Of a stretch of 64,000 nucleotides of DNA, positions 24,769 through 36,356 are shown one piece after another. The position numbers were made by a program, and so were the translations under genes. The notes below the pieces were generated by a model. It saw only the letters and a list, made by a program, of their open reading frames with translations. It ran no database searches and was not told the origin of the DNA. How positions within the stretch are numbered: the stretch's first letter is position 1; the number at the start of each line of letters is the position of its first letter. Source of the stretch: an uncultured Methylococcaceae bacterium (GTDB lineage: Bacteria; Pseudomonadota; Gammaproteobacteria; Methylococcales; Methylomonadaceae); contig CAIQNQ010000103.1 of NCBI GenBank assembly GCA_903873165.1, forward strand, positions 8,387 through 72,386, read 5' to 3'.

Positions 24769-24808
24769 CAACAAGGCGTTGCTTATTCCATCAGCGCCTT
24801 GTTAGTTT
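24769..24808. terminator. terminator hairpin between tex and the convergent 108-aa ORF
   Basis: Stem AACAAGGCG / CGCCTTGTT with a 16-nt loop, followed by AGTTTT. Confidence 0.6.
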
Positions 24809-24821
24809 TGAAAAAATGACA

Positions 24822-25148
24822 TCAAGCTTCTTTAGGTTCAATGCGTTTACGAATGCCATCAGGCATTTCAAGTTTCGCTCTATCCCAACCCTCTAAATCT
24901 AATACTTCATCCAAGCACTTTTCCATTAACTCATGCGCTTGTTTTGTAACTTCTGCAATGCGTTCATGCACTTTCTTTTGTACTTCATTTTCAACTGGCA
25001 ATTCCAAACAAGTTTTTTGATAATCAAATAACTTACGTAAATTGCTAATTTGCATACTGATATGCACAGGACATGCACAGGTATAAAGGGCCGCTTGATT
25101 ATTAATAATAGCCAACTGCAAGGCCGTAAATTTATTATCAAGATTCAT
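24822..25148 (-). CDS. hypothetical protein (108 aa)
   Basis: ORF only. It contains a CACPVH motif and matches no family I recognise. Confidence 0.4.
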   Translation of the reverse strand: MNLDNKFTALQLAIINNQAALYTCACPVHISMQISNLRKLFDYQKTCLELPVENEVQKKVHERIAEVTKQAHELMEKCLDEVLDLEGWDRAKLEMPDGIRKRIEPKEA

Positions 25149-25445
25149 CTAGTTTCTCCTCATTATTTTTTTGCGACCGTTTATTTTTATTGCTTGAGTT
25201 CAAGCTATATTATTTTTAGCAACTCGGCCTTTATTGCTGTGATTATGATAACTCTAATATGTGCTACTGCCATCATTTTCTTATTAAAACGGTGAGTTAT
25301 TACTGCTTAAGATACTTTGACTTAAATCGCCATCATTAAATTTTAAATAGCCTATGCACATCTTTTTAATAGATGCATTAAAAATATTTTGACTGCTGTG
25401 CTTTTTGGCTTTATCATTCGCGTCAACAAAAAAGATGCAGAAAAA

Positions 25446-26036
25446 ATGAATATTAAATACCTAGTCAACGTATCAGCCGGACACCCTTTTCGCGAGAGTA
25501 TTCAACATGCTTTAGATGGAGATACTGCGGTTGTACAACTGAAAGATGTCGATCCAGAAAAAGGGCTTGATAGCGCTCAACTGTTCAAAGTGCATTTAAC
25601 GGGTCGTAAAAGTCCTGATTATTTACAACGAGGCGATATTCTCTTTGTCGGACGTGGTTACCGGATTTTTGCGGTGCTAGTCGATCAGGATTTACAGCCT
25701 ACCGTGGCTGGATCGCACTTCTTTATTCTCAGGGTTAGACCAAACAACCCAGATGTCAGTCCAGATTATTTGGTTTGGTATATTAATCATAAACAAGCAC
25801 AACGGTATTTTGCTCAACATGTAGCAGGCTCAGCGTTACCGCATGTCACCCGTACCACGCTTGAAGACTTACCGGTGCTGGTTCCGCCCTTAGCGGTGCA
25901 GGAACACATAGTCAAATTACACCATTGCCGACTAAAAGAAAAAGCCCTACTGGAAAAGTTAATCGAGAAGAAAAAACAGCTTATAGATGGCTTATTAGAT
26001 AAAACATTAGAACCGTATCACGAGGATAAAACATGA
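25446..26036 (+). CDS. hsdS: Type I restriction-modification specificity subunit, half-size (single target-recognition domain)
   Basis: TRD-like pattern (GDILFVGRG..., SHFFILR, PDYLVWYINHKQAQRYF, GSALPHVTRTTLEDLPVLVPPLAVQEHIV) followed by one conserved helical spacer. The stop overlaps the hsdM start as ATGA. The start is uncertain: ATG at 25446 or TTG at 25389. Confidence 0.7.
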   Translation: MNIKYLVNVSAGHPFRESIQHALDGDTAVVQLKDVDPEKGLDSAQLFKVHLTGRKSPDYLQRGDILFVGRGYRIFAVLVDQDLQPTVAGSHFFILRVRPNNPDVSPDYLVWYINHKQAQRYFAQHVAGSALPHVTRTTLEDLPVLVPPLAVQEHIVKLHHCRLKEKALLEKLIEKKKQLIDGLLDKTLEPYHEDKT

Positions 26037-27541
26037 GTACACAAATCAATCAAGATGAAATTAACAGCATTCTCTGGAAAGCCTGCGATACCTTTCGGGG
26101 CACTGTAGATGCCTCAGAGTATAAAAACTATATTCTAGTGATGCTGTTCGTAAAATACATTTCTGATGTGTGGCAAGAACACTACGAAAATCTAAAAGAA
26201 AAATTTGGCAATGATGAAGACATGATCTTACGCCGAATGCAACGTGAGCGTTTTGTATTGCCCAAAGGCTGTAATTTTCAAGAACTCTATAACCAACGCA
26301 ACGAGCCCAATGTTGGAGAGATTATCAATATCGCCTTAGAGCATATTGAAGAAACCAATAAACAAAAGCTCTCAGGTGTGTTTCGTAATATTGATTTTAA
26401 CTCAGAAGCTAACTTAGGCCAGACCAAAGACCGCAACACCCGCTTAAAACATCTGTTAGATGACTTTAATGACACCCGTTTAGATCTAAAGCCGTCTCGG
26501 GTGGGTAATCTGGATGTGATCGGTAATGCCTATGAATACCTAATCGCCCGCTTTGCCGCTGGTGCAGGTAAAAAAGCCGGGGAATTTTACACCCCCGCAG
26601 AAGTGTCAGAATTGATTGCCGAACTGGTTGACCCACAAGCAGGAGAGCGTATCTCTGATCCTACCTGTGGTTCAGGCTCATTACTGATTAAATGCGGCAA
26701 TCAACTCTTAAAACGCGGCATCAAAGACTTTGCCTTATATGGTCAAGAAATTACCGGCGCCACTTGGGCATTAGCAAAAATGAATATGTTTCTGCACAGT
26801 ATGGATAATGCCCGTATTGAATGGGGCGACACCATTAGAAACCCTAAGCTGATTGAAGACGACACCACTATGAAGTTTGAAGTCGTGGTAGCTAATCCAC
26901 CATTCTCTCTGGATAAATGGGGCTATGAAGTGGCCAGCAACGATCCTTATCAACGCTTTCATCGGGGCTTACCCCCCCAATCTAAAGGCGATTATGCCTT
27001 TATCTTGCACATGATAGAAACGACTACTCAAGATTCTGGCAGAGTCGGCGTGGTAGTACCTAATGGGGTATTATTCCGTGGTGCTGCCGAAGGTAAAATA
27101 CGCCAACAACTGATTGAAGAAAATTTACTGGACGCAGTCATTGGCTTACCAGCCAATCTGTTTTTTGGCACGGGAATCCCGGCGGCAGTATTACTATTTA
27201 AACGTAATAAAGCCGATAACAAGGTACTGTTTATTGATGCCAGTCGCGATTATCAAAGCGACAAAAATCAGAACAGACTCAGACAAACTGATATTGATAA
27301 AATTCTCACCACCTATCAAGCGAGAATCTCTGTCGATAAATATGCCTATCTTGCAGACATTAAAGAGCTTAAAGAAAATGACTTTAATCTTAATATCCCT
27401 CGCTATGTTGACACCTTCGAAGAAGAACAAGAGATTGATATTAATGCTGTGCAAGCTGAGATAGTTACCTTAGAAGCTGAACTGGCTGATGTGAAACTTC
27501 AAATGGTTGCTTACATGAAGGAACTTGGCTATGAGGCATAA
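26033..27541 (+). CDS. hsdM: Type I restriction-modification DNA methyltransferase subunit M (N6-adenine)
   Basis: HsdM N-terminal domain (LWKACDTFRG...YKNYILVMLFVKYISD), SAM motif DPTCGSGSLL and catalytic motif NPPF. Confidence 0.93.
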   Translation: MSTQINQDEINSILWKACDTFRGTVDASEYKNYILVMLFVKYISDVWQEHYENLKEKFGNDEDMILRRMQRERFVLPKGCNFQELYNQRNEPNVGEIINIALEHIEETNKQKLSGVFRNIDFNSEANLGQTKDRNTRLKHLLDDFNDTRLDLKPSRVGNLDVIGNAYEYLIARFAAGAGKKAGEFYTPAEVSELIAELVDPQAGERISDPTCGSGSLLIKCGNQLLKRGIKDFALYGQEITGATWALAKMNMFLHSMDNARIEWGDTIRNPKLIEDDTTMKFEVVVANPPFSLDKWGYEVASNDPYQRFHRGLPPQSKGDYAFILHMIETTTQDSGRVGVVVPNGVLFRGAAEGKIRQQLIEENLLDAVIGLPANLFFGTGIPAAVLLFKRNKADNKVLFIDASRDYQSDKNQNRLRQTDIDKILTTYQARISVDKYAYLADIKELKENDFNLNIPRYVDTFEEEQEIDINAVQAEIVTLEAELADVKLQMVAYMKELGYEA

Positions 27542-27586: not shown

Positions 27587-28801
27587 ATGAGAGTACCTGA
27601 TGGATGGAATACTTTACCCATTTCAGACATATTAGAACGAGTTTCTGAGCCTGTCTTTCCAAAACCTGAAGAAAATTATTACCAAATTGGTATACGATCT
27701 CATGGCAAAGGATTGTTTCATAAGGAAGCAGTCACCGGCGAAGCATTAGGCGACAAAAGAGTATTTCGAGTTCATCCAGATTGCTTCATTGTTAATATTG
27801 TTTTTGCTTGGGAACAGGCTGTTGCAAAAACAAGTTCCAATGAAATTGGCATGATTGCATCACACAGATTCCCTATGTTTCGACCAAAAAACAATCAATG
27901 TGATATCCATTATTTAACTTATTTCTTCAAGACACCTAAAGGCAAGTACCTACTTGAGCTCGCTTCTCCCGGTGGAGCGGGTCGAAATAAGACATTGGGG
28001 CAAAATGAGTTTTCTTTACTAAAGTTAACGCTTCCACCCATAAATGAGCAACAAAAAATCTCACAGATTCTATCCACTTGGGACAAAGCTATTGATAAGT
28101 TGGAAGCGTTAATTGCCGCTAAGCAAAAGCGTAAAAAAGCCTTGATGCAACAGCTTTTAACTGGAAATAAAAGATATTTTGGATTTAATGAGGCTTGGGT
28201 TCAATTTAAACTTGGGGAGATATTCTCAAAGATTTCTAACGGTTTAACATATGACACCAATGCCGAAGAGGGATTACCTGTTACTCGAATTGAAACAACA
28301 ACTAACGGAAAAATAAATTATGAGAAAGTTGGTTGGGCCCCAAATAATGATAATACAAAGCGCTTCACACTTTGTTACGGCGACATTTTATACAGCCACA
28401 TAAATAGTCTTGAACATATTGGTAGAGTCGCTTTTTACCGTGCAGAAAAGCCTTTATATCATGGCATGAACTTACTTTTGCTTAGGCCAAATGAAAAAGT
28501 AGTGCCAGAATTAATTTTCCATATTTTAAATTCAATGATTGGTAAAAAATATGCTAGAAATTACGCAAAGTCAGCCGTAAATCAGGCAAGTATTTCTACA
28601 GCGGATATTAAAAGCTTTAAAATCAAAATTCCCACTTTAAAAGAACAACTAAAGATAGCAGATGTTATCACTGCTGCCGACAACGAAATAACCATACACC
28701 AAAACCAACTCGCAGCACTCAAGCAACAGAAAAAAGCCCTGATGCAACAGCTTTTGACCGGCAAGAAGCGGGTCAATATTGATCTTAAGGTGGTTGCATG
28801 A
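27587..28801 (+). CDS. hsdS: Type I restriction-modification specificity subunit S (two TRDs)
   Basis: 404 aa with two variable regions separated and followed by the conserved repeats KKALMQQLLTG(N/K)KR. Confidence 0.9.
   Translation: MRVPDGWNTLPISDILERVSEPVFPKPEENYYQIGIRSHGKGLFHKEAVTGEALGDKRVFRVHPDCFIVNIVFAWEQAVAKTSSNEIGMIASHRFPMFRPKNNQCDIHYLTYFFKTPKGKYLLELASPGGAGRNKTLGQNEFSLLKLTLPPINEQQKISQILSTWDKAIDKLEALIAAKQKRKKALMQQLLTGNKRYFGFNEAWVQFKLGEIFSKISNGLTYDTNAEEGLPVTRIETTTNGKINYEKVGWAPNNDNTKRFTLCYGDILYSHINSLEHIGRVAFYRAEKPLYHGMNLLLLRPNEKVVPELIFHILNSMIGKKYARNYAKSAVNQASISTADIKSFKIKIPTLKEQLKIADVITAADNEITIHQNQLAALKQQKKALMQQLLTGKKRVNIDLKVVA
28133..28164 (+). repeat. hsdS conserved-region direct repeat, copy 1
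   Basis: AAAAAAGCCTTGATGCAACAGCTTTTAACTGG has 3 mismatches over 32 nt against the copy at 28730-28761. Confidence 0.85.
28730..28761 (+). repeat. hsdS conserved-region direct repeat, copy 2
   Basis: AAAAAAGCCCTGATGCAACAGCTTTTGACCGG. Confidence 0.85.
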
Positions 28802-29301
28802 CCGATACAGTATTTGAAAATATACGCAAAGAGTGCCTGAGGATTGAAGAAGACGTTCTTCATTCGGGAAAAAGTCACTGCAATGCATCCGCCATGTGGT
28901 CATGGATTCATTATTTGATAGGCATACCTATGACAATTTTTGCAGCATGGGCCGGAATAGATGCTTTCAGTGAAAATTCACAGTTCTCAGGTTATTTGTC
29001 ATTAATAACAGCGACCTTGGCGGCATTACAGACATTTATAAGCCCGAGCGACAAATCATCAAAGCATAAAAGTGCCGGCACTGAATATTTCAGACTTAAA
29101 AACCAAACGCGGATATTTCGAGAAATTGAACTCGATGAAAGCGACAAAACTGAAGCCAAGAAAGCGATATGTCTACTTGCGCAGAATCGGGATGATTTAA
29201 ACAGTATTTCTCCTTCCATACCTTATTTGGCCTTTTGGTTGGCCCGCAAAGGAATCAATCGAGGGAATGCAGTTTATAACGTAGATAAAGGAGCGAATTA
29301 A
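28798..29301 (+). CDS. SLATT-like 2-TM effector protein
   Basis: 167 aa with two adjacent hydrophobic helices (WIHYLIGIPMTIFAAWAGI and GYLSLITATLAALQTFI), then a charged helical tail with the conserved-looking KHKSAGTEYFRLKN. The ATG overlaps the hsdS stop by 4 nt, and an SMODS-type gene follows immediately. Confidence 0.65.
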   Translation: MTDTVFENIRKECLRIEEDVLHSGKSHCNASAMWSWIHYLIGIPMTIFAAWAGIDAFSENSQFSGYLSLITATLAALQTFISPSDKSSKHKSAGTEYFRLKNQTRIFREIELDESDKTEAKKAICLLAQNRDDLNSISPSIPYLAFWLARKGINRGNAVYNVDKGAN

Positions 29302-30144
29302 ATGACAGTATCAACATATTTAAAGCGTATTTCTGATGGCGCGATCATTCGTGACAACGAAAAAGAGTCTATTCAAAAATCAATTTCTACCATTCAAGAT
29401 CGCCTTTATAGTTATTTTGGCAGTGCGATCAAGGAGAAGTTTATTTTCGGATCATATACTCGGGGAACAATTCTGCCGCGCTCCATGGACGATCAGTCTG
29501 ATATTGATTATATGGTTTTATTTGAAAACGATGGCGTTAAACCACAATCATATTTAGATCGGCTCAAGAAATTTGCAGAGAAACGCTATTCTACCTCTGA
29601 GATTAAACAGTCGCACCCCACAATAAAACTGAATCTGAACCATATTACTTTTGAGCTTGTTCCTGCGCAAAATGATTGGTTTTCAGGATATAAAATACCG
29701 TCAAAAAAATACGGAATTGATGATTGGATTGACACAAACCCGAATGACTTCAATCAAGCCTTAACTGAAAAAAATAAAGAATATGGATACGTTATTAAGC
29801 CACTGATACGCTTAGTGAAATATTGGAATGCGAGGAATGGCTACATTTTTAAGTCATTCTCTTTAGAAAAATGGATCGTAGAACAATCCTTTTCAGGGGC
29901 CACGATTCTTCATACTCCTGATTTAAAGGAATGTCTGTTTCAGTGCTTTGAAAGAATTGACACTGGAAAATTATCTGAAGCCAACAAAAACAAGGTTAAT
30001 CGCGCCAAAACTATTGTTGCAGAAGTCAGAAAACTTGAAAAAGATGGCCATCCTGTACCAGCAGAAGAAAAAATCAAAAAGCTAATTCCTGATACTGATG
30101 AAGATACAAAAGGGTTGGCGGCGATACTACTCGGTATGAGATAG
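29302..30144 (+). CDS. SMODS-type (Pol-beta fold) nucleotidyltransferase, CD-NTase-like
   Basis: FGSYTRGTILPRSMDDQSDIDYMVLF gives a G-S ... DxD minimal nucleotidyltransferase signature. The third acidic position is plausible in FELVPAQ. The ATG directly abuts the SLATT stop (TAAATG). Confidence 0.7.
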   Translation: MTVSTYLKRISDGAIIRDNEKESIQKSISTIQDRLYSYFGSAIKEKFIFGSYTRGTILPRSMDDQSDIDYMVLFENDGVKPQSYLDRLKKFAEKRYSTSEIKQSHPTIKLNLNHITFELVPAQNDWFSGYKIPSKKYGIDDWIDTNPNDFNQALTEKNKEYGYVIKPLIRLVKYWNARNGYIFKSFSLEKWIVEQSFSGATILHTPDLKECLFQCFERIDTGKLSEANKNKVNRAKTIVAEVRKLEKDGHPVPAEEKIKKLIPDTDEDTKGLAAILLGMR

Positions 30145-30151
30145 GATACAA

Positions 30152-30463
30152 GTGCTGATGGTCGCTCAAGAGTATGTGGAAGATTTGTCGTCGTTGCCTG
30201 CGCTTGGCTTGCTTGGTCAGTTAGGCTATCGGTATCTGACACCCTCTGAAAATTTGGCATTGCGTGGTGGTAGAACTACTAAGTTGATCTTGGAAACTGT
30301 ACTGAAAGAACAGCACCGTAAATTCAACTCCATCACTTTCAAAGGTAAACAATACGACTTCAGTGAAGGCAATATCCAGAAAGCCGTTCAGGCCTTAGCC
30401 GATATTCCCTTTGATAGTCTGATGAATACGCGAGAGCAGATTTACGACCCGCTCACCATTTAG
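30152..30463 (+). pseudogene. hsdR: hsdR 5' fragment (about 100 codons), diverged paralog of the N-terminus of the full hsdR
   Basis: The fragment reads EDLSSLPALGLLGQLGYRYLTPSENLALRGGRTTK...NSITFKGKQYDFSEGNIQKAVQALADIPFDSLMNTREQIYD. It aligns residue for residue with EDLSSLLPALTVLEKLGFSYLTPADQLALRGGRTSK...NSITFKGQVTAFTDSNIQKAVQALVGIPFDSLMNTSEQVYD of the 30678 gene. The fragment ends before any nuclease or helicase motif. Confidence 0.75.
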
Positions 30464-30556
30464 AATTTAATCTAGCCAGTATGGGCGCTCCATAAGATTA
30501 CGAGAAAAGATGGTAGGTGAGATTGCAAAAGCAATAGGCAATAAAAAACCCCTAAG

Positions 30557-30584
30557 CGATTTAACTGCAAAAGCAGTTAAATCG
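30557..30584. repeat. 12-bp perfect stem hairpin (CGATTTAACTGC aaaa GCAGTTAAATCG) just upstream of hsdR
   Basis: Read directly from the sequence. No T-tract follows it. Confidence 0.8.
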
Positions 30585-30677
30585 AAAGGAGCCGTGTTGA
30601 TGACCATTCTACTTAATCGACACAACTAAGCAAGTTTTTAATAAAAATCGGAATTGCTCGCCTACAGGAAGCGCACT

Positions 30678-33600
30678 ATGTCCATAAATGATTATCTGGA
30701 AGATTTATCTTCATTATTACCTGCACTGACGGTACTTGAAAAACTGGGGTTTAGTTATTTAACGCCCGCAGATCAATTAGCTTTACGGGGAGGCAGAACC
30801 TCTAAATGTGTGCAGGAAAGTATTCTGACTCAGCAATTACAAAAGATTAATTCGATTACTTTTAAAGGTCAGGTTACTGCATTTACTGACAGTAATATTC
30901 AAAAAGCCGTACAAGCATTAGTCGGCATTCCGTTTGATAGCCTCATGAATACCAGCGAACAAGTTTATGATTTATTAACGCTGGGTAAAAGTTTGGAACA
31001 AACGATTGACGGTTACACCAAAAGTTTTTCTCTGCATTACATTGATTGGAAACACCCTGAGAATAATGTCTTTCATGTGTGCGATGAATTTATTTTAGAG
31101 CGCCGCAATAGCAAACAAACACGCAGGCCTGACATTGTGTTGTTTGTAAACGGTATCCCATTGGTCGTGATTGAATGTAAGCGCCCTGACTTAAAGGATG
31201 CTATTGAACAAGGCATTAGCCAACACTTACGTAATCAACGCGGTGATGAAATCCCCGAATTGTTTACCTATGCACAGATTTTATTATCATTGAGCCAAAA
31301 TAAAGCGCTTTATGCTACCACTGGGACACCCGCTAAGTTTTGGGCACTTTGGAAAGAAGAAGATAAAGACGCACAAGAAAACTATCTACATGACTTAATC
31401 AATACACCTGTCAGTCTTGAATTTAAAAACCGTTTGTTCGCTGAGCGTGATGTCCAGCAACGACAAGCGATGGAAACGCTTTGGCAATCGGGCCAAAGAA
31501 CACCTTCTCCACAAGATAAAGCCCTACATAGTTTATTGAGGCCGGAACGCTTGTTAGAGTTGATTTATCAATTTATTGTCTTTGACAATAAAGAAAAGAA
31601 AATCTGTCGATATCAGCAATACTTTGCCGTTGCCGCGACCTTAAACCGCGTGAACCAACGCAAAGGTGACGCACCAAGACCCGGTGGCGTGATATGGCAT
31701 ACCACCGGTTCAGGAAAGTCTCTCACCATGGTGATGTTGGCGAAAGCGTTGGTGTTGGCACCGGCTATTCAGAATCCCAAAATTGTCTTGGTGACCGATC
31801 GAATTGATCTTGATGACCAGATTTATAAAACCTTTCATGCCTGCGGTAAGCCCGTTGTGCAAGCTAAAACCGGTGAACATTTATTAGAGCTTATTGCCCA
31901 TAATAAAGCCAGTATCATTACCACGATTATCGACAAGTTTGAGTCGGCCAGCCGTAAACGTAAAATCAGTGATGCCAGTAGTAATATCTTTGTGTTAGTC
32001 GATGAATCGCACCGCTCACAATACGGTGTTTCTCATGCAAAAATGCAGAATGTGTTTCCGAATGCTTGTTACATTGGCTTTACCGGTACACCACTACTAA
32101 AAAAAGAAAAGACCACTGCTGCCAAGTTCGGCGGTTTTATCCATAAATACACCATGAATCAAGCGGTCGCAGATGGCGCGGTGACGCCTTTATTGTATGA
32201 AGGCCGGATGAGTGAATTACAAGGCGATCAGGCGCAAATTGATAGGTGGTTCGAGCGAATCACTAAAGATCTTTCAAATGAGCAGAAGGCTGATTTAAAG
32301 AAGAAATTTCGTCGTGAAGAAGAACTAAGCAAGTCCGAACAACGCTTGAGCGAGATTGCTTATGATATAGGTCAACACTTTAAATCCAATTACAGAGGCA
32401 CAGGTAAAAAAGGCCAATTCGCCGTGACCAGTAAGGCGACGGCCTTACGTTATAAAAAATATTTTGATGAGTTTGGTGATGTAAGCGTTGAAGTTATTAT
32501 CTCTCCCCTCGATACGCGAGAAGGTAATACGTCCGTTGATGAAGATACGCTGGAAGATATACAGGTCTTTTGGAAGTCAATGATGGCGAAATATGGCAAT
32601 GATGAAAAATATCAGGAAAGCATCATCAATGCCTTTAAATATTCTGACGATCCAGAAATTTTGATTGTCGTGGACAAACTGCTCACGGGATTTGATGCAC
32701 CCAGAAACACGGTGCTCTATCTGGATAAACGCCTTAAAGAACACAATATATTGCAAGCCATTGCGCGGGTAAATCGCTTGTTTGAAGGTAAGGACTTTGG
32801 CTTAATTATCGATTATCGTGGCATCTTCGGTGAACTTAATGAAGCGATTGATACCTACTCTGCCCTAGAAAACGAAGGGTTTGATCCAGAAGATATTGAA
32901 GGCACCCTGACCGATATTACCGAAGAAATTAAACTGCTACCACAACGACATACTAATGTCTGGGAGGTATTTAAGGAGGTCAGTAATCAAAAGGATTTGG
33001 AGGCTATGCAACTGCATTTAGAGCCAGAAGACCGCCGCCAGCGATTTTATGATTGTTTAGCGGCATTTACCAAGACTCTGCAATTAGCCTTAGCTAATGC
33101 TAAGTTTCAGGATGAAACGCCCCCTAAGAAAATAGCGGTCTATAAAGATGATTTGAAATATTTCCTTAATCTTAGACAAGCCATCAAACAGCGCTTTGGC
33201 GAGTCTGTGGATTATTCATCTTATGAGCAACAGATCCGCAATATGGTTAACAAATACATCGGTGCGGATGCGGTTAAACAACTGATTGCCCCAGTGAATG
33301 TATTTGCTATTGATGAGTTTGAAAAAGAAATTGCTTCTATCGAAGGTGATGCTGCCAAAGCTGATGCTATAGCCTCAAGAATAAAAAAGACCATCACTGA
33401 AAAGATGGAAGAAGATCCAGCTTTATACAAACGACTTTCGGAAATGATTGATGAAGCCATCGCGGAGCATAGGGCAAAACGCCTCTCTGATATAGAGTAT
33501 TTAGAGCGCATTCGCAAAACGCTAACTGAATTGCGTGGTAAATCAAGCTCTGACCTACCGGAGATTTTATCCTATCATGATGAAGCTAAAGCCTTTTATG

Positions 33601-33875
33601 GGGTGATTAAAGAACCACTAAGCGAGTATCAAATTCCGGGCTTAACGCCTGAGTTGTTTGCGGCTGAAACGGCCTTAAAGCTAGAAGATATTATTTCTGA
33701 ACATAAAATTAGGGATTGGATAAAAAATCAGGATGTTAATAATGTGATTTTAAATGAGCTGGAAGACTATCTTTTTAGTTTGAAAGGTCGTTACGAACTG
33801 GCAATGGACTTAGATCTTATTGAGCGTATCACTCATCAAGTGCTTGCTATAGCAAAACGTAGAGATGGTAAATGA
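30678..33875 (+). CDS. hsdR: Type I restriction enzyme R subunit (endonuclease/helicase)
   Basis: Nuclease motif PDIVLFVNGIPLVVIECK, Walker A HTTGSGKSLTMV and DEAH-type motif VDESHRSQ. The ATG at 30678 (MSINDYLEDL) is preferred over the TTG at 30654. Confidence 0.93.
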   Translation: MSINDYLEDLSSLLPALTVLEKLGFSYLTPADQLALRGGRTSKCVQESILTQQLQKINSITFKGQVTAFTDSNIQKAVQALVGIPFDSLMNTSEQVYDLLTLGKSLEQTIDGYTKSFSLHYIDWKHPENNVFHVCDEFILERRNSKQTRRPDIVLFVNGIPLVVIECKRPDLKDAIEQGISQHLRNQRGDEIPELFTYAQILLSLSQNKALYATTGTPAKFWALWKEEDKDAQENYLHDLINTPVSLEFKNRLFAERDVQQRQAMETLWQSGQRTPSPQDKALHSLLRPERLLELIYQFIVFDNKEKKICRYQQYFAVAATLNRVNQRKGDAPRPGGVIWHTTGSGKSLTMVMLAKALVLAPAIQNPKIVLVTDRIDLDDQIYKTFHACGKPVVQAKTGEHLLELIAHNKASIITTIIDKFESASRKRKISDASSNIFVLVDESHRSQYGVSHAKMQNVFPNACYIGFTGTPLLKKEKTTAAKFGGFIHKYTMNQAVADGAVTPLLYEGRMSELQGDQAQIDRWFERITKDLSNEQKADLKKKFRREEELSKSEQRLSEIAYDIGQHFKSNYRGTGKKGQFAVTSKATALRYKKYFDEFGDVSVEVIISPLDTREGNTSVDEDTLEDIQVFWKSMMAKYGNDEKYQESIINAFKYSDDPEILIVVDKLLTGFDAPRNTVLYLDKRLKEHNILQAIARVNRLFEGKDFGLIIDYRGIFGELNEAIDTYSALENEGFDPEDIEGTLTDITEEIKLLPQRHTNVWEVFKEVSNQKDLEAMQLHLEPEDRRQRFYDCLAAFTKTLQLALANAKFQDETPPKKIAVYKDDLKYFLNLRQAIKQRFGESVDYSSYEQQIRNMVNKYIGADAVKQLIAPVNVFAIDEFEKEIASIEGDAAKADAIASRIKKTITEKMEEDPALYKRLSEMIDEAIAEHRAKRLSDIEYLERIRKTLTELRGKSSSDLPEILSYHDEAKAFYGVIKEPLSEYQIPGLTPELFAAETALKLEDIISEHKIRDWIKNQDVNNVILNELEDYLFSLKGRYELAMDLDLIERITHQVLAIAKRRDGK

Positions 33876-34591
33876 GTGAGGTTTTATTAAATGAGAGAAA
33901 ACAATCGGTCTTGTTCGGTCAGGCTGAAATTACTTATGTCGTTAATTGGAGTGATCGTAAGACCCTGGCAATTCATGTGTATCCAGATGGGGAAGTTGTT
34001 GTTGATGCACCGATAGCAGTGAGTCAGATTGCCATTGCCCAAAAAGTTAAAAAACGAGCCGCATGGATTTTTAAACAACAAATGCAATTTGCCGCCTATC
34101 CGCCCGTCATGCCAGAAAGACGCTATGTATCTGGCGAATCTTATCGCTACTTGGGGCGGCAATATCGGTTGTTGGTAAAGCAAGGCAGCGGCGAGCACGT
34201 CAAACTTATTAAAGGTCGAATTGTGGTTGAGACGGCTGATCCTGAAAATGCAAATAAAGTTAAAGCCCTGCTGCTCTATTGGTCAAGGTCAAGAGCACAA
34301 ATTATCTTTTCTGAGCGTTACCATATTTGTCTGAAGTTGGTTGCCAAATTGGGTATAGAGCACTATCAGGGTTTTCAACTCCGATCAATGCCTAAACGTT
34401 GGGGTAGTTGTACCGGTCAAGGCAATATCATGTTAAACCCTGAACTGATTGCCGCGCCTAAAGAGTGTATCGATTATGTGATTACACATGAGTTTTGCCA
34501 TTTAAAAATACGCAATCACAGTCCGGTATTTTATAAATTGTTAGCTAAGGTGATGCCTGATTGGGAAATTAGGCGTAAACGCTTAAATTAA
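33872..34591 (+). CDS. DUF45/YgjP-like HExxH metal-dependent hydrolase
   Basis: 239 aa with a C-terminal HEFCHL zinc motif. It overlaps the hsdR stop by 4 nt. DUF45 genes commonly follow hsdR. Confidence 0.8.
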   Translation: MSEVLLNERKQSVLFGQAEITYVVNWSDRKTLAIHVYPDGEVVVDAPIAVSQIAIAQKVKKRAAWIFKQQMQFAAYPPVMPERRYVSGESYRYLGRQYRLLVKQGSGEHVKLIKGRIVVETADPENANKVKALLLYWSRSRAQIIFSERYHICLKLVAKLGIEHYQGFQLRSMPKRWGSCTGQGNIMLNPELIAAPKECIDYVITHEFCHLKIRNHSPVFYKLLAKVMPDWEIRRKRLN

Positions 34592-34916: not shown

Positions 34917-35020
34917 AAATGATGAAATCCAGGCGCGAGACCGCCCCCATACTGATTCGGAATTGACATCTTAGCGGATTACATCGCACTTCGGAGTTGA
35001 ATCCGCGATATTAGTTTAGC
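34917..35020 (+). pseudogene. possible ParE toxin N-terminal fragment
   Basis: Shifted frames read ..IDILADYIAL.. and ..SELNPRY. This resembles the ParE DL..I..YIA....NP..A region. Only about 35 codons remain. Confidence 0.3.
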
Positions 35021-35044
35021 GTTCTCTTAAATTTAAATAAAAAA

Positions 35045-35069
35045 AGCCCCGCATTTTTATGTGAGGCTA
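35045..35069 (-). terminator. intrinsic terminator (minus strand)
   Basis: The minus strand reads AGCCTCACATAAAAATGCGGGGCTTTTTTT, an imperfect stem plus a T7 tail. It lies downstream of the small lipoprotein ORF. Confidence 0.5.
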
Positions 35070-35128
35070 ATTGTGTTGAAGTGCAGTTGCTAGAGATTCA
35101 GTAATGACACCTAAGCGAACACATCAGT

Positions 35129-35251
35129 TTATTTTATAGATATATTTGAAGCATTTGTTGCTGCAGGTTTACTTGGGCCTTTTCCTGAGTCACAAGCAAC
35201 AAGACTGAAGATAGTGATAACTAACAATAACAATTGGCTTACATATTTCAT
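35129..35251 (-). CDS. small putative lipoprotein (40 aa), absent from the ORF track
   Basis: Reverse translation gives MKYVSQLLLLVITIFSLVACDSGKGPSKPAATNASNISIK*, with a signal peptide and an LVAC lipobox. The SD is weak (GAGA). It has its own downstream terminator. Confidence 0.4.
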   Translation of the reverse strand: MKYVSQLLLLVITIFSLVACDSGKGPSKPAATNASNISIK

Positions 35252-35399
35252 GAGTTTCTCGTTTATAATTAAGATTTATTATCGATTTCTTCTTTAACAT
35301 TTAAGAGAAAGAAGCAATTATGCTTAAGTTTTATTAGGCATCATTATTTATACAGGTGTATTAAAATTAAAAACTGATTTGGATCAATAAATCACGAGA

Positions 35400-36356
35400 A
35401 TGAATAATCGGTTTCAGACAAACTTTGAATATGCTTGTAATGATCGGAAAGAGGTTTTAGTGATTAAACAAAAAGATATTGATCGCTTACGGGTTGAGCC
35501 GGGTAAAAAGATTCATCTTAAAGATTTTAATACCGAATGGGATAAGCTTGATAAGTATGAAGAGGCTGGCGAAACCGCTTTAAAAGCACAGCTTAATTTA
35601 CTATTAGCAAAAAACCTAACCGATTTAACAAAAGCTCAACAATTACTTTATGTGGATGATCGTTATTCCGTATTGATTGTGTTTCAGGCGATGGATGCGG
35701 CAGGTAAAGACAGCACGATTAAGCATGTGATGTCGGGGGTTAATCCGCAGGGCTGTCAGGTATATAGTTTTAAAAAACCTTCTTTAGAAGACGCTGGACA
35801 TAACTTTCTCTGGCGTTATGCCAAATGTTTACCTGAACGGGGCAGAATTGGTATTTTTAATCGCTCTTATTATGAAGATGTCTTAGTGGTTAAAGTGCAT
35901 CCAGAGCTATTACAAAACTTGCCAGAGGGTAAAGTCAATAAAGCTTTTTGGCAGGGGCGCTATGATGATATTAACGCGTTTGAGCAGCACCTGCATAGAA
36001 ACGGTACCATCATCCTAAAATTCTTTTTAAATCTCTCTAAGCATGAGCAAAAGAAACGCTTTTTAGAGCGCATTGATAAGCCAGAAAAAAACTGGAAATT
36101 AACAGAGGCAGATTTAGCAGAGCGTGATTATTGGCAAGACTATATGGTGGCGTATGAAGAGGCTATTAATGCCACGAGTACTGAGTGGGCGCCTTGGTAT
36201 ATTGTGCCCGCTGATAATAAAAGGGTAACGCGGGCTTTAGTAGCGGAAACAATTACTTCAACCTTAAAAAGTCTAGAGCTTAATTATCCTAAGGTCAGTA
36301 AAGAGCAGGCCGATTTTTTAATTAATGCGCGTGAGAAATTAGTTTTGGATAGCTGA
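35400..36356 (+). CDS. ppk2: polyphosphate kinase 2 family protein
   Basis: P-loop-like MDAAGKDSTIKHV, plus FLWRYAKCLPERGRIGIFNRSYYEDVLVVKVH, which is typical of PPK2. Confidence 0.88.
   Translation: MNNRFQTNFEYACNDRKEVLVIKQKDIDRLRVEPGKKIHLKDFNTEWDKLDKYEEAGETALKAQLNLLLAKNLTDLTKAQQLLYVDDRYSVLIVFQAMDAAGKDSTIKHVMSGVNPQGCQVYSFKKPSLEDAGHNFLWRYAKCLPERGRIGIFNRSYYEDVLVVKVHPELLQNLPEGKVNKAFWQGRYDDINAFEQHLHRNGTIILKFFLNLSKHEQKKRFLERIDKPEKNWKLTEADLAERDYWQDYMVAYEEAINATSTEWAPWYIVPADNKRVTRALVAETITSTLKSLELNYPKVSKEQADFLINAREKLVLDS

Follow-up and report, generated by a model that had tools for sequence, protein, structure and literature searches.

What is a pair of SLATT and SMODS genes doing between hsdS and hsdR of a Type I restriction-modification (R-M) operon, and does it defend the cell on its own or as a guard of the restriction complex? 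The question is raised by a locus of an uncultured Methylococcaceae bacterium (contig CAIQNQ010000103.1). The window, the whole stretch of DNA that was analysed, has a length of 64,000 nt. SMODS and SLATT were reportedly defined by Burroughs et al. in 2015. A first-pass annotation had read the pair as a minimal CBASS and had placed it between the two hsd genes. Profile matches for both proteins and the fold match of the cyclase to CD-NTases agree with these identities, and the position was confirmed. The pair is probably a self-contained Type I CBASS, a predicted abortive-infection module that occupies the hsdS-hsdR slot of the operon as cargo.

The operon and its embedded genes

The whole operon spans about 9 kb on the forward strand. 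The first gene is a short, half-size hsdS-like gene (25389-26036; Pfam Methylase_S 3.5e-06, PADLOC Specificity_I 2e-19), which is also located upstream of hsdM in most related operons. The top promoter-like site of the region (25389-25417, 10/12 matches, in a scan in which the number of sites equals chance) covers the annotated start, so the true start of this gene is probably a downstream ATG. The methyltransferase subunit is encoded by hsdM (26033-27541), taken from the ORF list and assigned by homologues with HsdM_N and N6_Mtase domains; relatives with 60-97% identity were present at 80 metagenome loci. The full-length specificity subunit gene hsdS (27587-28801; Methylase_S in an identical protein) has conserved central and C-terminal repeats at 28133-28170 and 28730-28767 (direct repeat D1). 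Its variable TRD regions had no match among the sibling operons. The intact hsdR (30678-33875) codes for a restriction/translocase subunit that has 1065 aa when translated from its ATG (30678); the ORF list has the gene start further upstream, with a TTG at 30654. An identical protein contains HSDR_N, ResIII, SWI2_SNF2, T1R_D3-like and T1RH-like_C domains, and the nearest solved structure is EcoR124I HsdR (2e-35). A YgjP-like (DUF45) metallopeptidase gene (33872-34591; Pfam YgjP-like 2.5e-57) is the conserved last gene of this operon family and stands after hsdR in almost every related operon.

Promoter and terminator scans of the operon gave the same counts as shuffled sequence, so they cannot be used to judge an internal hsdR promoter. 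Flanking direct repeats or an integrase marking the operon or the SLATT-cyclase pair were not found, nor were tRNA genes or Rfam families within the window.

The SLATT gene (28798-29301) and the cyclase gene (29302-30144) follow hsdS on the same strand. The ATG of the SLATT gene at 28798 overlaps the hsdS stop, which ends at 28801, by 4 nt as ATGA. The SLATT stop codon (29299-29301) and the cyclase start at 29302 form TAAATG, and the genes abut. The earlier reading of both junctions was correct. This order, with the SLATT gene directly 5' of the cyclase gene, recurs at about 70 of the 80 related loci.

The right-hand side of the pair is different from what had been claimed. The first-pass annotation let hsdR resume 8 nt after the pair and regarded the pair as embedded in the hsd operon transcriptionally and translationally. 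Translational coupling to hsdS on the left stands. On the right, only an N-terminal hsdR fragment of 101-103 aa follows, with homology from 13 nt past the cyclase stop. The intact hsdR starts only at 30678, so the pair abuts a pseudogene scar on this side and not hsdR. Going solely by the gene spacing, the pair would be co-transcribed with the hsd genes.

The fragment (30158-30463) is a truncated duplicate of the hsdR 5' end. With the ATG at 30158 as its start, it codes for 101 aa; the ORF list gives it as 30152-30463, with a GTG start. It shares 62% identical amino acids with residues 9-110 of the resident HsdR and 77-80% with the N-termini of intact HsdR in three sibling operons (L096, L089 and L166). 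Every metagenome copy of the locus has it. A spacer (30464-30677, 214 nt) separates the fragment from hsdR. Within this unrelated sequence lie a 39-codon ORF (30510-30629) and, at 30560-30581, a hairpin with 9 perfectly paired bp. It had no similarity to sibling operons and no terminator or promoter call.

The cyclase and the SLATT protein

The 280-aa protein is a CD-NTase of the SMODS family and a predicted cyclic-oligonucleotide synthase. It matched Pfam SMODS with 4.4e-39 (135 bits, cutoff 26.5) and the PADLOC CBASS cyclase model PDLC00769 with 1.1e-110. The match to NCBIfam CBASS_cyclase_b (1.2e-30, 107 bits) was below the cutoff of 200. The Pol-beta signature of the first reading is present as GSYTRGT (G50, S51) and DSDIDYMV (D67, D69), and all four residues are invariant in 34 homologues. 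The third acidic residue, E118, is Asp or Glu in all homologues. The G-S motif and the catalytic triad are thus complete. The AlphaFold2 model (pLDDT 88, pTM 0.84) has the two-lobe fold of cGAS/DncV-like enzymes. The top 50 PDB matches in Foldseek were all CD-NTases, the best being CdnD of Pseudomonas aeruginosa (PaCdnD; TM 0.73-0.75, E 4e-13). By sequence, the nearest solved enzymes are also of clade D (BcCdnD 1e-12, PaCdnD 6e-11), with an identity of only ~18%. The best relatives in genomes were Chlamydiota MAGs with only 60% identity. A genome scan with the single protein found no relatives; the scan with an alignment found them.

A Gly/Leu tail at the C-terminus (residues 263-280) is present in the hsd-embedded lineage and absent from standalone relatives. 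The view that this stretch only encodes the hsdR ribosome-binding region was rejected, since the tail is retained upstream of other cargo and at loci without a following hsd gene.

The 167-aa protein belongs to the SLATT_4 family of two-TM proteins and is a predicted membrane-disrupting CBASS effector. It matched NCBIfam SLATT_4 (NF033632) with 3.5e-32 (111 bits, cutoff 55) and the PADLOC 2TM effector model PDLC00712 with 1.5e-56; Pfam SLATT_4 (PF18186) was sub-threshold (E 0.05). Two hydrophobic segments at residues ~36-58 and 63-81 have a moderate Kyte-Doolittle hydropathy of 1.4-1.5 and are followed by charged helices. The AlphaFold2 model (pLDDT 93) is all-helical, with helices at 4-56, 64-81, 83-114, 117-137 and 143-154. 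Hydropathy and model together give a two-TM hairpin with a helical cytoplasmic part, which bears out the hairpin and charged helical tail seen at first. An N-terminal motif RIEED...HS.K.H is invariant in the homologues. The PDB had no match to the protein by sequence or by fold. We know of no SLATT protein with a solved structure or a demonstrated ligand.

Profile matches with E-values to 1e-110 and a dN/dS of 0.29 for the cyclase (in comparison with its relative at locus L166) exclude chance ORFs. For the SLATT gene, the same comparison gave ~0.21 (dN 0.058, dS 0.282). These ratios indicate purifying selection on both genes.

Exchange of the pair and the cargo slot

The locus L166 has a related pair within a related hsd operon. 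Between L166 and the window, the pair shares 90-93% identical nucleotides, with a pS of 0.15-0.24 and a synonymous divergence of 0.17-0.28. In contrast, hsdM, hsdS and hsdR are only 73-75% identical and their synonymous sites are saturated (pS 0.77-0.80). The HsdS proteins share only 59% identical amino acids. The similarity is bounded by the hsdS stop on the left and extends to 13 nt beyond the cyclase stop on the right. The low synonymous divergence of the pair against saturated hsd genes shows that diverged hsd operons have exchanged the pair as a cassette. We read the hsdR fragment next to it as a recombination scar. The fragment did not arrive with the pair from an L166-like donor: its dS of 2.6 to the hsdR of L166 makes it as diverged as the resident gene. 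Its donor is an unsampled sibling operon.

Together, the synonymous contrast and the scar show that old, diverged operons pass on the pair as a precisely delimited cassette. Recombination through the hsd flanks would be a concrete mechanism for a turnover of cargo that was previously only suggested. Both flanks, the 3' end of hsdS and the 5' end of hsdR, are conserved at the protein level.

The slot was surveyed in 53 related operons in which the hsdS end and hsdR could both be located (hsdM and hsdR were both seen in 56). In 28 of the 53, it carried 0.4-5.5 kb of other genes. The cargo included Fic, PIN, Abi_2, TIR and Schlafen proteins, SMODS-AGS_C with SLATT_6 and other SMODS and SLATT pairs; the pair of the window was in none of these 53 slots. 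Among loci related by the pair, homologous pairs recur in exactly the hsdS-hsdR slot in many species. The CD-NTase lineage of the window occupied it in about 20 of 24 related loci from several phyla. Four of the 24 were without hsd genes, and two were located beside decayed hsd genes. A second CD-NTase lineage lies just 3' of the hsdR of a different hsd family and is translationally coupled to the hsdR end. A third has no hsd genes nearby. Across the family, an obligate association with Type I R-M genes is not found: 51 of the 80 relatives at species level (~45-55% identical) have retained SLATT and cyclase together without nearby hsd genes, in varied island contexts.

Nesting between hsdS and hsdR is documented, and the first-pass annotation overstated the novelty of the architecture. 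The E. coli prr locus has the order hsdM-hsdS-prrC-hsdR, with prrC in the slot (PMC12707154). DarTG2 in EPEC (PMC12255303) and TgvAB in V. cholerae VPI-2 (PMC11411939) are nested in the same way, and a 'guilt-by-embedding' survey described defence genes in the slot (bioRxiv 10.1101/2024.01.29.577857). In this survey, embedded genes share the orientation of the host operon in 96.7% of cases, and co-regulation was proposed. The pair of the window resembles these cases as an independent defence system with the same slot and orientation, and earlier work regards this slot as a probable hotspot of recombination. It differs from DarTG2, TgvAB and the surveyed genes in that the cargo is a CBASS and in that cassette exchange is seen directly in the sequence by the dS contrast and the hsdR scar. 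The pair and its nesting are both of known kinds; the locus is a well-documented example and not a new kind of system. Its value lies in a clean, well-delimited natural combination of a minimal CBASS with the hsdS-hsdR cargo slot. Two results go slightly beyond the searchable literature: the near-confinement of a single CD-NTase/SLATT_4 lineage to this slot in distant phyla, and the cassette movement shown by the synonymous contrast and the scar.

A probable self-contained CBASS and its alternatives

The neighbours of the pair (hsdS, the hsdR fragment and hsdR) include no Cap2, Cap3, HORMA/TRIP13 or other ancillary genes. A cyclase and an effector without accessory genes make a Type I CBASS. 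SLATT-type operons of this kind protect E. coli by themselves (bioRxiv 10.1101/2023.05.21.541620). The tested examples are EcCdnF04-SLATT6 and a lactococcal operon of SLATT and NTase/AGS-C (bioRxiv 10.1101/2023.05.21.541620; PMC11381338). Like these, the pair of the window has two genes, a CD-NTase and a SLATT-family membrane effector, and no accessory genes. Its effector is SLATT_4 and not SLATT_6, and its cyclase is minimal, without the AGS-C domain. The existing PADLOC models for CBASS cyclases and 2TM effectors recognise the pair. Experimentally tested members of its CD-NTase lineage were not found in the literature.

By analogy to established CBASS, the cyclase would be silent until a phage cue and would then make a cyclic oligonucleotide. 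The nucleotide may be bound by the cytoplasmic helices of the SLATT protein, which would oligomerise and breach the inner membrane. Death or arrest of the cell would precede phage release. Through its nesting, the pair may be expressed at a low level and in co-regulation from the hsdM-hsdS transcript. The nesting may also let the pair travel with hsd operons and recombine between them via the hsdS 3' and hsdR 5' flanks. The outcome would be a layered defence, restriction first and suicide second, for which a physical coupling is not required.

A physical coupling is the essence of the strongest alternative, a guardian like PrrC. The idea goes back to the first-pass annotation, in which inhibition of the R-M system would set off the pair as a second line of defence. 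Contact with Hsd proteins would hold the cyclase or the SLATT protein inactive, and an anti-restriction protein (Ocr, ArdA or Stp-like) that disables the Hsd complex would release it. The slot is that of prrC (PMC12707154), and as in prr, a suicide effector, here a predicted one, lies between hsdS and hsdR in the same orientation. As with PrrC, the lineage of the window occurs almost only inside Type I R-M operons, across phyla. This is more slot fidelity than simple island clustering predicts, and it counts against the self-contained reading. Pairwise distances for the pair also correlate with those for hsdM and hsdR (Mantel r 0.66-0.73), and the lineage-specific tail of the cyclase could be a docking motif. 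However, the slot exclusivity is equally explained by a cassette that spreads via recombination in the hsd flanks. The pair was swapped between operons with differing Hsd proteins, as seen by the HsdS identity with L166, and hsd genes were not co-transferred. Its relatives live in genomes without an hsd neighbour, and the slot houses many unrelated defence genes. Two loci from Chlamydiota (L006 and L007) have a pair that looks intact beside R-M genes that appear to be broken into fragments or to survive only as a remnant of hsdS; as both are draft MAGs, this is a weak hint at autonomy. PrrC itself is a single ATPase-nuclease, an anticodon nuclease guarding EcoprrI, and the Hsd complex masks it physically. 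In the window, two genes instead code for a predicted signal synthase and a predicted membrane effector, and relatives of the pair occur without hsd genes.

A published Type I CBASS beside Type I R-M genes acts alone. It works in another host, outside its native locus, and was shown to sense a phage RNA (PMC10686824). It is likewise a minimal CBASS with a 2-TM effector adjoining Type I R-M genes, in the words of the figure legend 'flanked' by them. Its clade E cyclase and Cap15 beta-barrel effector, as described there, both differ from the proteins of the window.

The comparative data lean away from a PrrC-like guard role, which is not favoured and on the whole unlikely. Improbable to the same degree is its most specific form. 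Here, the CD-NTase/SLATT_4 lineage would serve Type I restriction as a dedicated guardian; the tail would dock the cyclase on the Hsd complex, and the cyclase would be switched on, or in the inverse case off, when anti-restriction proteins disable the complex. If true, this would be the first CBASS triggered by the state of another immune system, and the trigger of a Type I CBASS would be identified with it. To our knowledge, the trigger is still open for most CBASS operons.

Very unlikely is an inverse signalling as in Panoptes. There, OptS (mCpol) and OptE (2TM) use inhibitory signalling (PMC12657218). The cyclase of the window would constitutively make a nucleotide that closes the 2-TM protein, and depletion by phage sponges or nucleases would release it. 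Minimal pairs of another cyclase family and a 2TM effector work in this way (PMC12657218). Similarities are the minimal nucleotide synthase of 280 aa without a sensor domain, the small 2-TM membrane effector and the effector gene that directly precedes the cyclase gene. In contrast, Panoptes cyclases (mCpol, DisA-like) and effectors (S-2TMbeta) belong to different families, with another synthase fold and another sensor domain in the effector. An mCpol or minimal DAC synthase with an S-2TMbeta, CARF or SAVED 2TM effector is not what is encoded in the window, which has SMODS and SLATT_4. The SMODS and SLATT operons tested so far were reported as ordinary Type I CBASS (bioRxiv 10.1101/2023.05.21.541620). 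The sequence holds nothing that distinguishes the two logics.

An addiction module, a toxin-antitoxin-like pair that keeps the R-M operon or island from being lost and has little direct anti-phage role, is highly improbable. A membrane toxin with an adjacent nucleotidyltransferase recalls MNT-type antitoxins (NCBIfam MntA matched the cyclase weakly, E 0.13), and the linkage to a selfish R-M operon is tight. However, fold and profile matches are those of CD-NTases and not of MNT antitoxins, the pair is alone in many genomes, and related operons give phage protection (bioRxiv 10.1101/2023.05.21.541620).

A decaying passenger, brought in by recombination and functionless by now, would suit the rearranged region indicated by the hsdR fragment and the two metagenome copies L002 and L004, in which the SLATT ORF is called with 163 aa (167 aa in the window) and ends 12 nt from the cyclase, but it is hardly credible with both ORFs intact, all catalytic residues kept, a dN/dS of 0.2-0.3 and an identical cyclase protein on seven metagenome contigs.

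The pair and its operon

The 280-aa protein encoded at 29302–30144 (+) was recognised by Pfam SMODS (4.4e-39) and by the PADLOC CBASS 'oligonucleotide-cyclase' model (1.1e-110). Its AlphaFold model (pLDDT 88) matched only CD-NTases in the PDB, with CdnD of P. aeruginosa as best fold match (TM 0.73–0.75). Profile HMMs and predicted structure both support the SMODS nucleotidyltransferase named in the first-pass annotation. The solved enzymes nearest by sequence profile belong to clade D (nomenclature of PMC13424991), but ~18% identity is too low for a clade assignment. G50-S51, D67 and D69 are invariant in 34 homologues, and position 118 is Asp or Glu in all of them.

The 167-aa protein (28798–29301, +) matched NCBIfam SLATT_4 above the cutoff (3.5e-32) and the PADLOC '2TM effector' model (1.5e-56); Pfam SLATT_4 gave a sub-threshold match. 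The predicted structure is all-helical (pLDDT 93): residues ~36–58 and 63–81 form a hydrophobic hairpin, and charged helices follow. Family match and hairpin agree with the earlier reading as a SLATT two-TM effector. An N-terminal motif, RIEED...HS.K.H, is invariant. Searches of the PDB by sequence and by fold found no solved structure resembling this protein. Existing defence-system models recognise both components of the pair. Two metagenome copies encode a cyclase protein identical to that of the window; their SLATT ORF was called with 163 aa, 12 nt from the cyclase (L002, 3479–3970; L004, 28–519). This length difference is an indel polymorphism at the effector C-terminus.

The operon starts with a short hsdS-like gene (25389–26036), followed by hsdM (26033–27541), hsdS (27587–28801), the pair (28798–30144), an hsdR fragment (30152/30158–30463), an intact hsdR (30678–33875) and a gene for a YgjP-like peptidase (33872–34591). 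ORF list and sequence confirmed the gene junctions described before: the hsdS end at 28801 and the SLATT start at 28798 share an ATGA overlap, and the SLATT stop at 29301 and the cyclase start at 29302 form TAAATG. Operons of this whole family have two hsdS-type genes, the full hsdS and, ahead of hsdM, a half-size hsdS-like gene with a single target-recognition domain; a YgjP-like metallopeptidase gene always follows hsdR. The R-M operon of ~9 kb is flanked by the core genes tex and ppk2. AT-rich intergenic stretches are present on both sides (24800–25400 and 35000–35400; GC about 0.30–0.35 versus ~0.40 elsewhere). Searches of the window for flanking repeats, a tRNA or an integrase bordering the operon were negative.

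Recurrence of the pair and cargo of the slot

An alignment-based scan with one genome per species yielded 320 cyclase relatives. The best 80 of the 320 were grouped by phmmer with the Hsd proteins of the window and by a neighbour-joining tree of the cyclases, which gave three groups. The first-pass annotation had raised the question of whether homologous pairs recurrently sit between hsdS and hsdR. They do: among these 80, the lineage of the window comprises 24 loci including the window, and in about 20 of the 24 the pair is flanked by hsdS and hsdR of the window's operon family. Among the hosts are Gammaproteobacteria, Legionella, Acidobacteria, Chlamydiota, a Cyanobacteria/Melainabacteria MAG and an actinobacterial MAG. 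Commonly, 1–4 nt are shared by the hsdS stop and the SLATT start, and the cyclase stop is 1–5 nt from hsdR. In a betaproteobacterial lineage, the pair is located directly 3' of hsdR of a different hsd family, and in several loci the SLATT start again lies 4 nt inside the upstream gene. The largest lineage is mainly alphaproteobacterial (e.g., Sphingomonas, Mesorhizobium) and has varied flanking genes, with no hsd genes near the pair.

In the hsd-embedded lineage, the C-terminus of the cyclase is a short Gly/Leu-rich tail (residues 263–280 in the window, 30088–30141), which is missing from the standalone and 'after-hsdR' lineages. The tail is poorly predicted, and its motif recurs, e.g., as PVGGLLGR, PLGLLM and KGLAAILLGMR. 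Besides the window, it is present in L008, L014–L017, L019–L021, L026, L029, L036, L044, L048, L050 and L051.

The closer metagenomic relatives of the window's cyclase, with 89%, 68% and 66% identity, all occupy the hsdS–hsdR slot, some beside additional cargo including RhuM, SduA_C and DUF4917. In two loci, a small cyclase of the window's lineage adjoins another CBASS-like gene set of a different kind, namely SMODS-AGS_C (L049, 8001–10131) or SMODS-AGS_C and SLATT_6 (L050, 1732–4648). In both loci, the small cyclase had no detected SLATT_4 neighbour, which may reflect effector loss or sharing.

The slot was also viewed from the operon side, in the 80 metagenome loci with the HsdM closest to that of the window (60–97% identity). 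Both hsdM and hsdR were located in 56 of the 80 loci; in 53 of these, the hsdS end could also be placed. Extra DNA of 0.4–5.5 kb separates hsdS and hsdR in 28 of these 53 operons; many other loci of the set carry cargo between hsdM and hsdS. The cargo includes RhuM (PADLOC candidate PDC-S05), Fic, PIN, Abi_2, AbiEii-type ATPases, DUF3800, TIR and Schlafen; six SMODS proteins, an AGS-C domain being present in four, and two SLATT_6 proteins were also identified. The SLATT_4–cyclase pair was absent from these operons. In this slot, the four closest sibling operons (HsdM 86–90% identical) contain two Fic genes (L087), a PIN toxin (L088), SMODS-AGS_C with SLATT_6 (L089) and one Fic gene (L096). More than one kind of CBASS-type pair uses the slot, and the differing cargo of related operons marks it as a site of fast turnover.

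Nesting between hsdS and hsdR has been published for PrrC (PMC12707154), TgvAB (PMC11411939) and DarTG2, whose authors suspect a recombination hotspot at the site (PMC12255303), and a survey reported it for known defence systems in general (bioRxiv 10.1101/2024.01.29.577857). A literature search, with Burroughs et al. 2015 outside its coverage, found no paper naming a SMODS and SLATT pair in this slot.

Cassette exchange and the hsdR fragment

Comparison with L166, the locus with the 89% identical cyclase, revealed a sharp change in divergence. Nucleotide identity is 73–75% in the flanking operon, 90.5% in the SLATT gene, 92.9% in the cyclase gene and 100% in the 13-nt spacer after the cyclase. 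These shifts in identity coincide precisely with the stop codon of hsdS and with the beginning of the hsdR-like sequence. Synonymous divergence is low in the cyclase (pS 0.15, dS 0.17) and SLATT genes (pS 0.24, dS 0.28) and saturated in hsdM, hsdS and hsdR (pS 0.77–0.80); the common ancestor of the pair is therefore much younger than that of the host operons. From these sequence comparisons, we conclude that the pair moved as a cassette. In other locus pairs, divergence of the SLATT–cyclase pair is similar to that of the hsd genes, and their pairwise distances correlate (Mantel r 0.66–0.73). Exchange is thus occasional, and the pair usually stays linked to its hsd genes for a long time.

The hsdR-like sequence reported after the pair is present, but the intact gene does not resume there. 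It is an N-terminal fragment of 101–103 aa, located directly 3' of the cyclase gene and separated from the real hsdR by 214 nt of unrelated DNA. The fragment (30158–30463) has 62% amino acid identity to the N-terminus of the resident HsdR, stops just past the most conserved N-terminal block and is shared by all metagenome copies of the locus. It represents a third allele, nearest to the intact HsdR of sibling operons (77–80% amino acid identity). The L166 lineage was ruled out as its source (dS 2.6). The fragment is read as a recombination scar of such a cassette exchange. The spacer (30464–30677) contains a 39-codon ORF at 30510–30629, MVGEIAKAIGNKKPLSDLTAKAVKSKGAVLMTILLNRHN, and a hairpin at 30560–30581 with a perfect stem of 9 bp and a loop of 4 nt. 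It had no match in the sibling operons and could be a leftover of earlier cargo or carry an hsdR promoter.

Mode of action

The absence of accessory genes places the pair in Type I CBASS with a SLATT effector, and it is probably an ordinary, self-sufficient system of this type. SLATT-type Type I operons protected E. coli (bioRxiv 10.1101/2023.05.21.541620). Observation extends as far as the parts list, selection and mobility of the pair; the signalling steps are extrapolated from other CBASS systems. A phage cue would activate the cyclase, its nucleotide product would cause the membrane-located SLATT protein to open or assemble, and the infected cell would abort infection. Nesting plausibly keeps expression of the toxic protein low and coupled to hsdS, and lets the pair travel with a mobile operon.

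The first-pass annotation had drawn a reasonable analogy to PrrC, with a pair that may fire when the flanking R-M system is inhibited. In such a scheme, the Hsd complex would keep the pair inactive until phage anti-restriction proteins disable that complex. The pair shares the slot of PrrC (PMC12707154), the fidelity of its lineage to hsd operons is as striking as that of PrrC (bioRxiv 10.1101/2024.01.29.577857), and only the embedded cyclases, not their standalone relatives, have the Gly/Leu tail. However, a cassette spreading by recombination through hsd flanks would be just as confined to the slot, the exchange of the pair happened without its Hsd partners, and relatives live without hsd genes. 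Two Chlamydiota MAGs also have an intact pair beside R-M genes that appear decayed, although MAG quality limits the weight of this point. Such control by the Hsd complex is unlikely. A Panoptes-like inverse logic (PMC12657218), with a nucleotide keeping the two-TM protein closed until phages deplete it, is very improbable, a low rating given because the sequence holds nothing that separates inverse from classical signalling.

In the first Chlamydiota MAG (L006, 3416–10050), the R-M genes look fragmented; in the second (L007, 7067–8885), they are reduced to a 144-aa hsdS remnant beside a lysyl-tRNA synthetase gene. The SLATT and cyclase ORFs are intact in both, and the state of the R-M genes could be real decay or an assembly error. 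Elsewhere, a pair-bearing operon directly adjoins P2-like phage tail and lysozyme genes (L169, 12744–16834). Viral or prophage contigs of IMG/VR contained 18 cyclase relatives, a few with hsd genes nearby (L171, L172 and L175).
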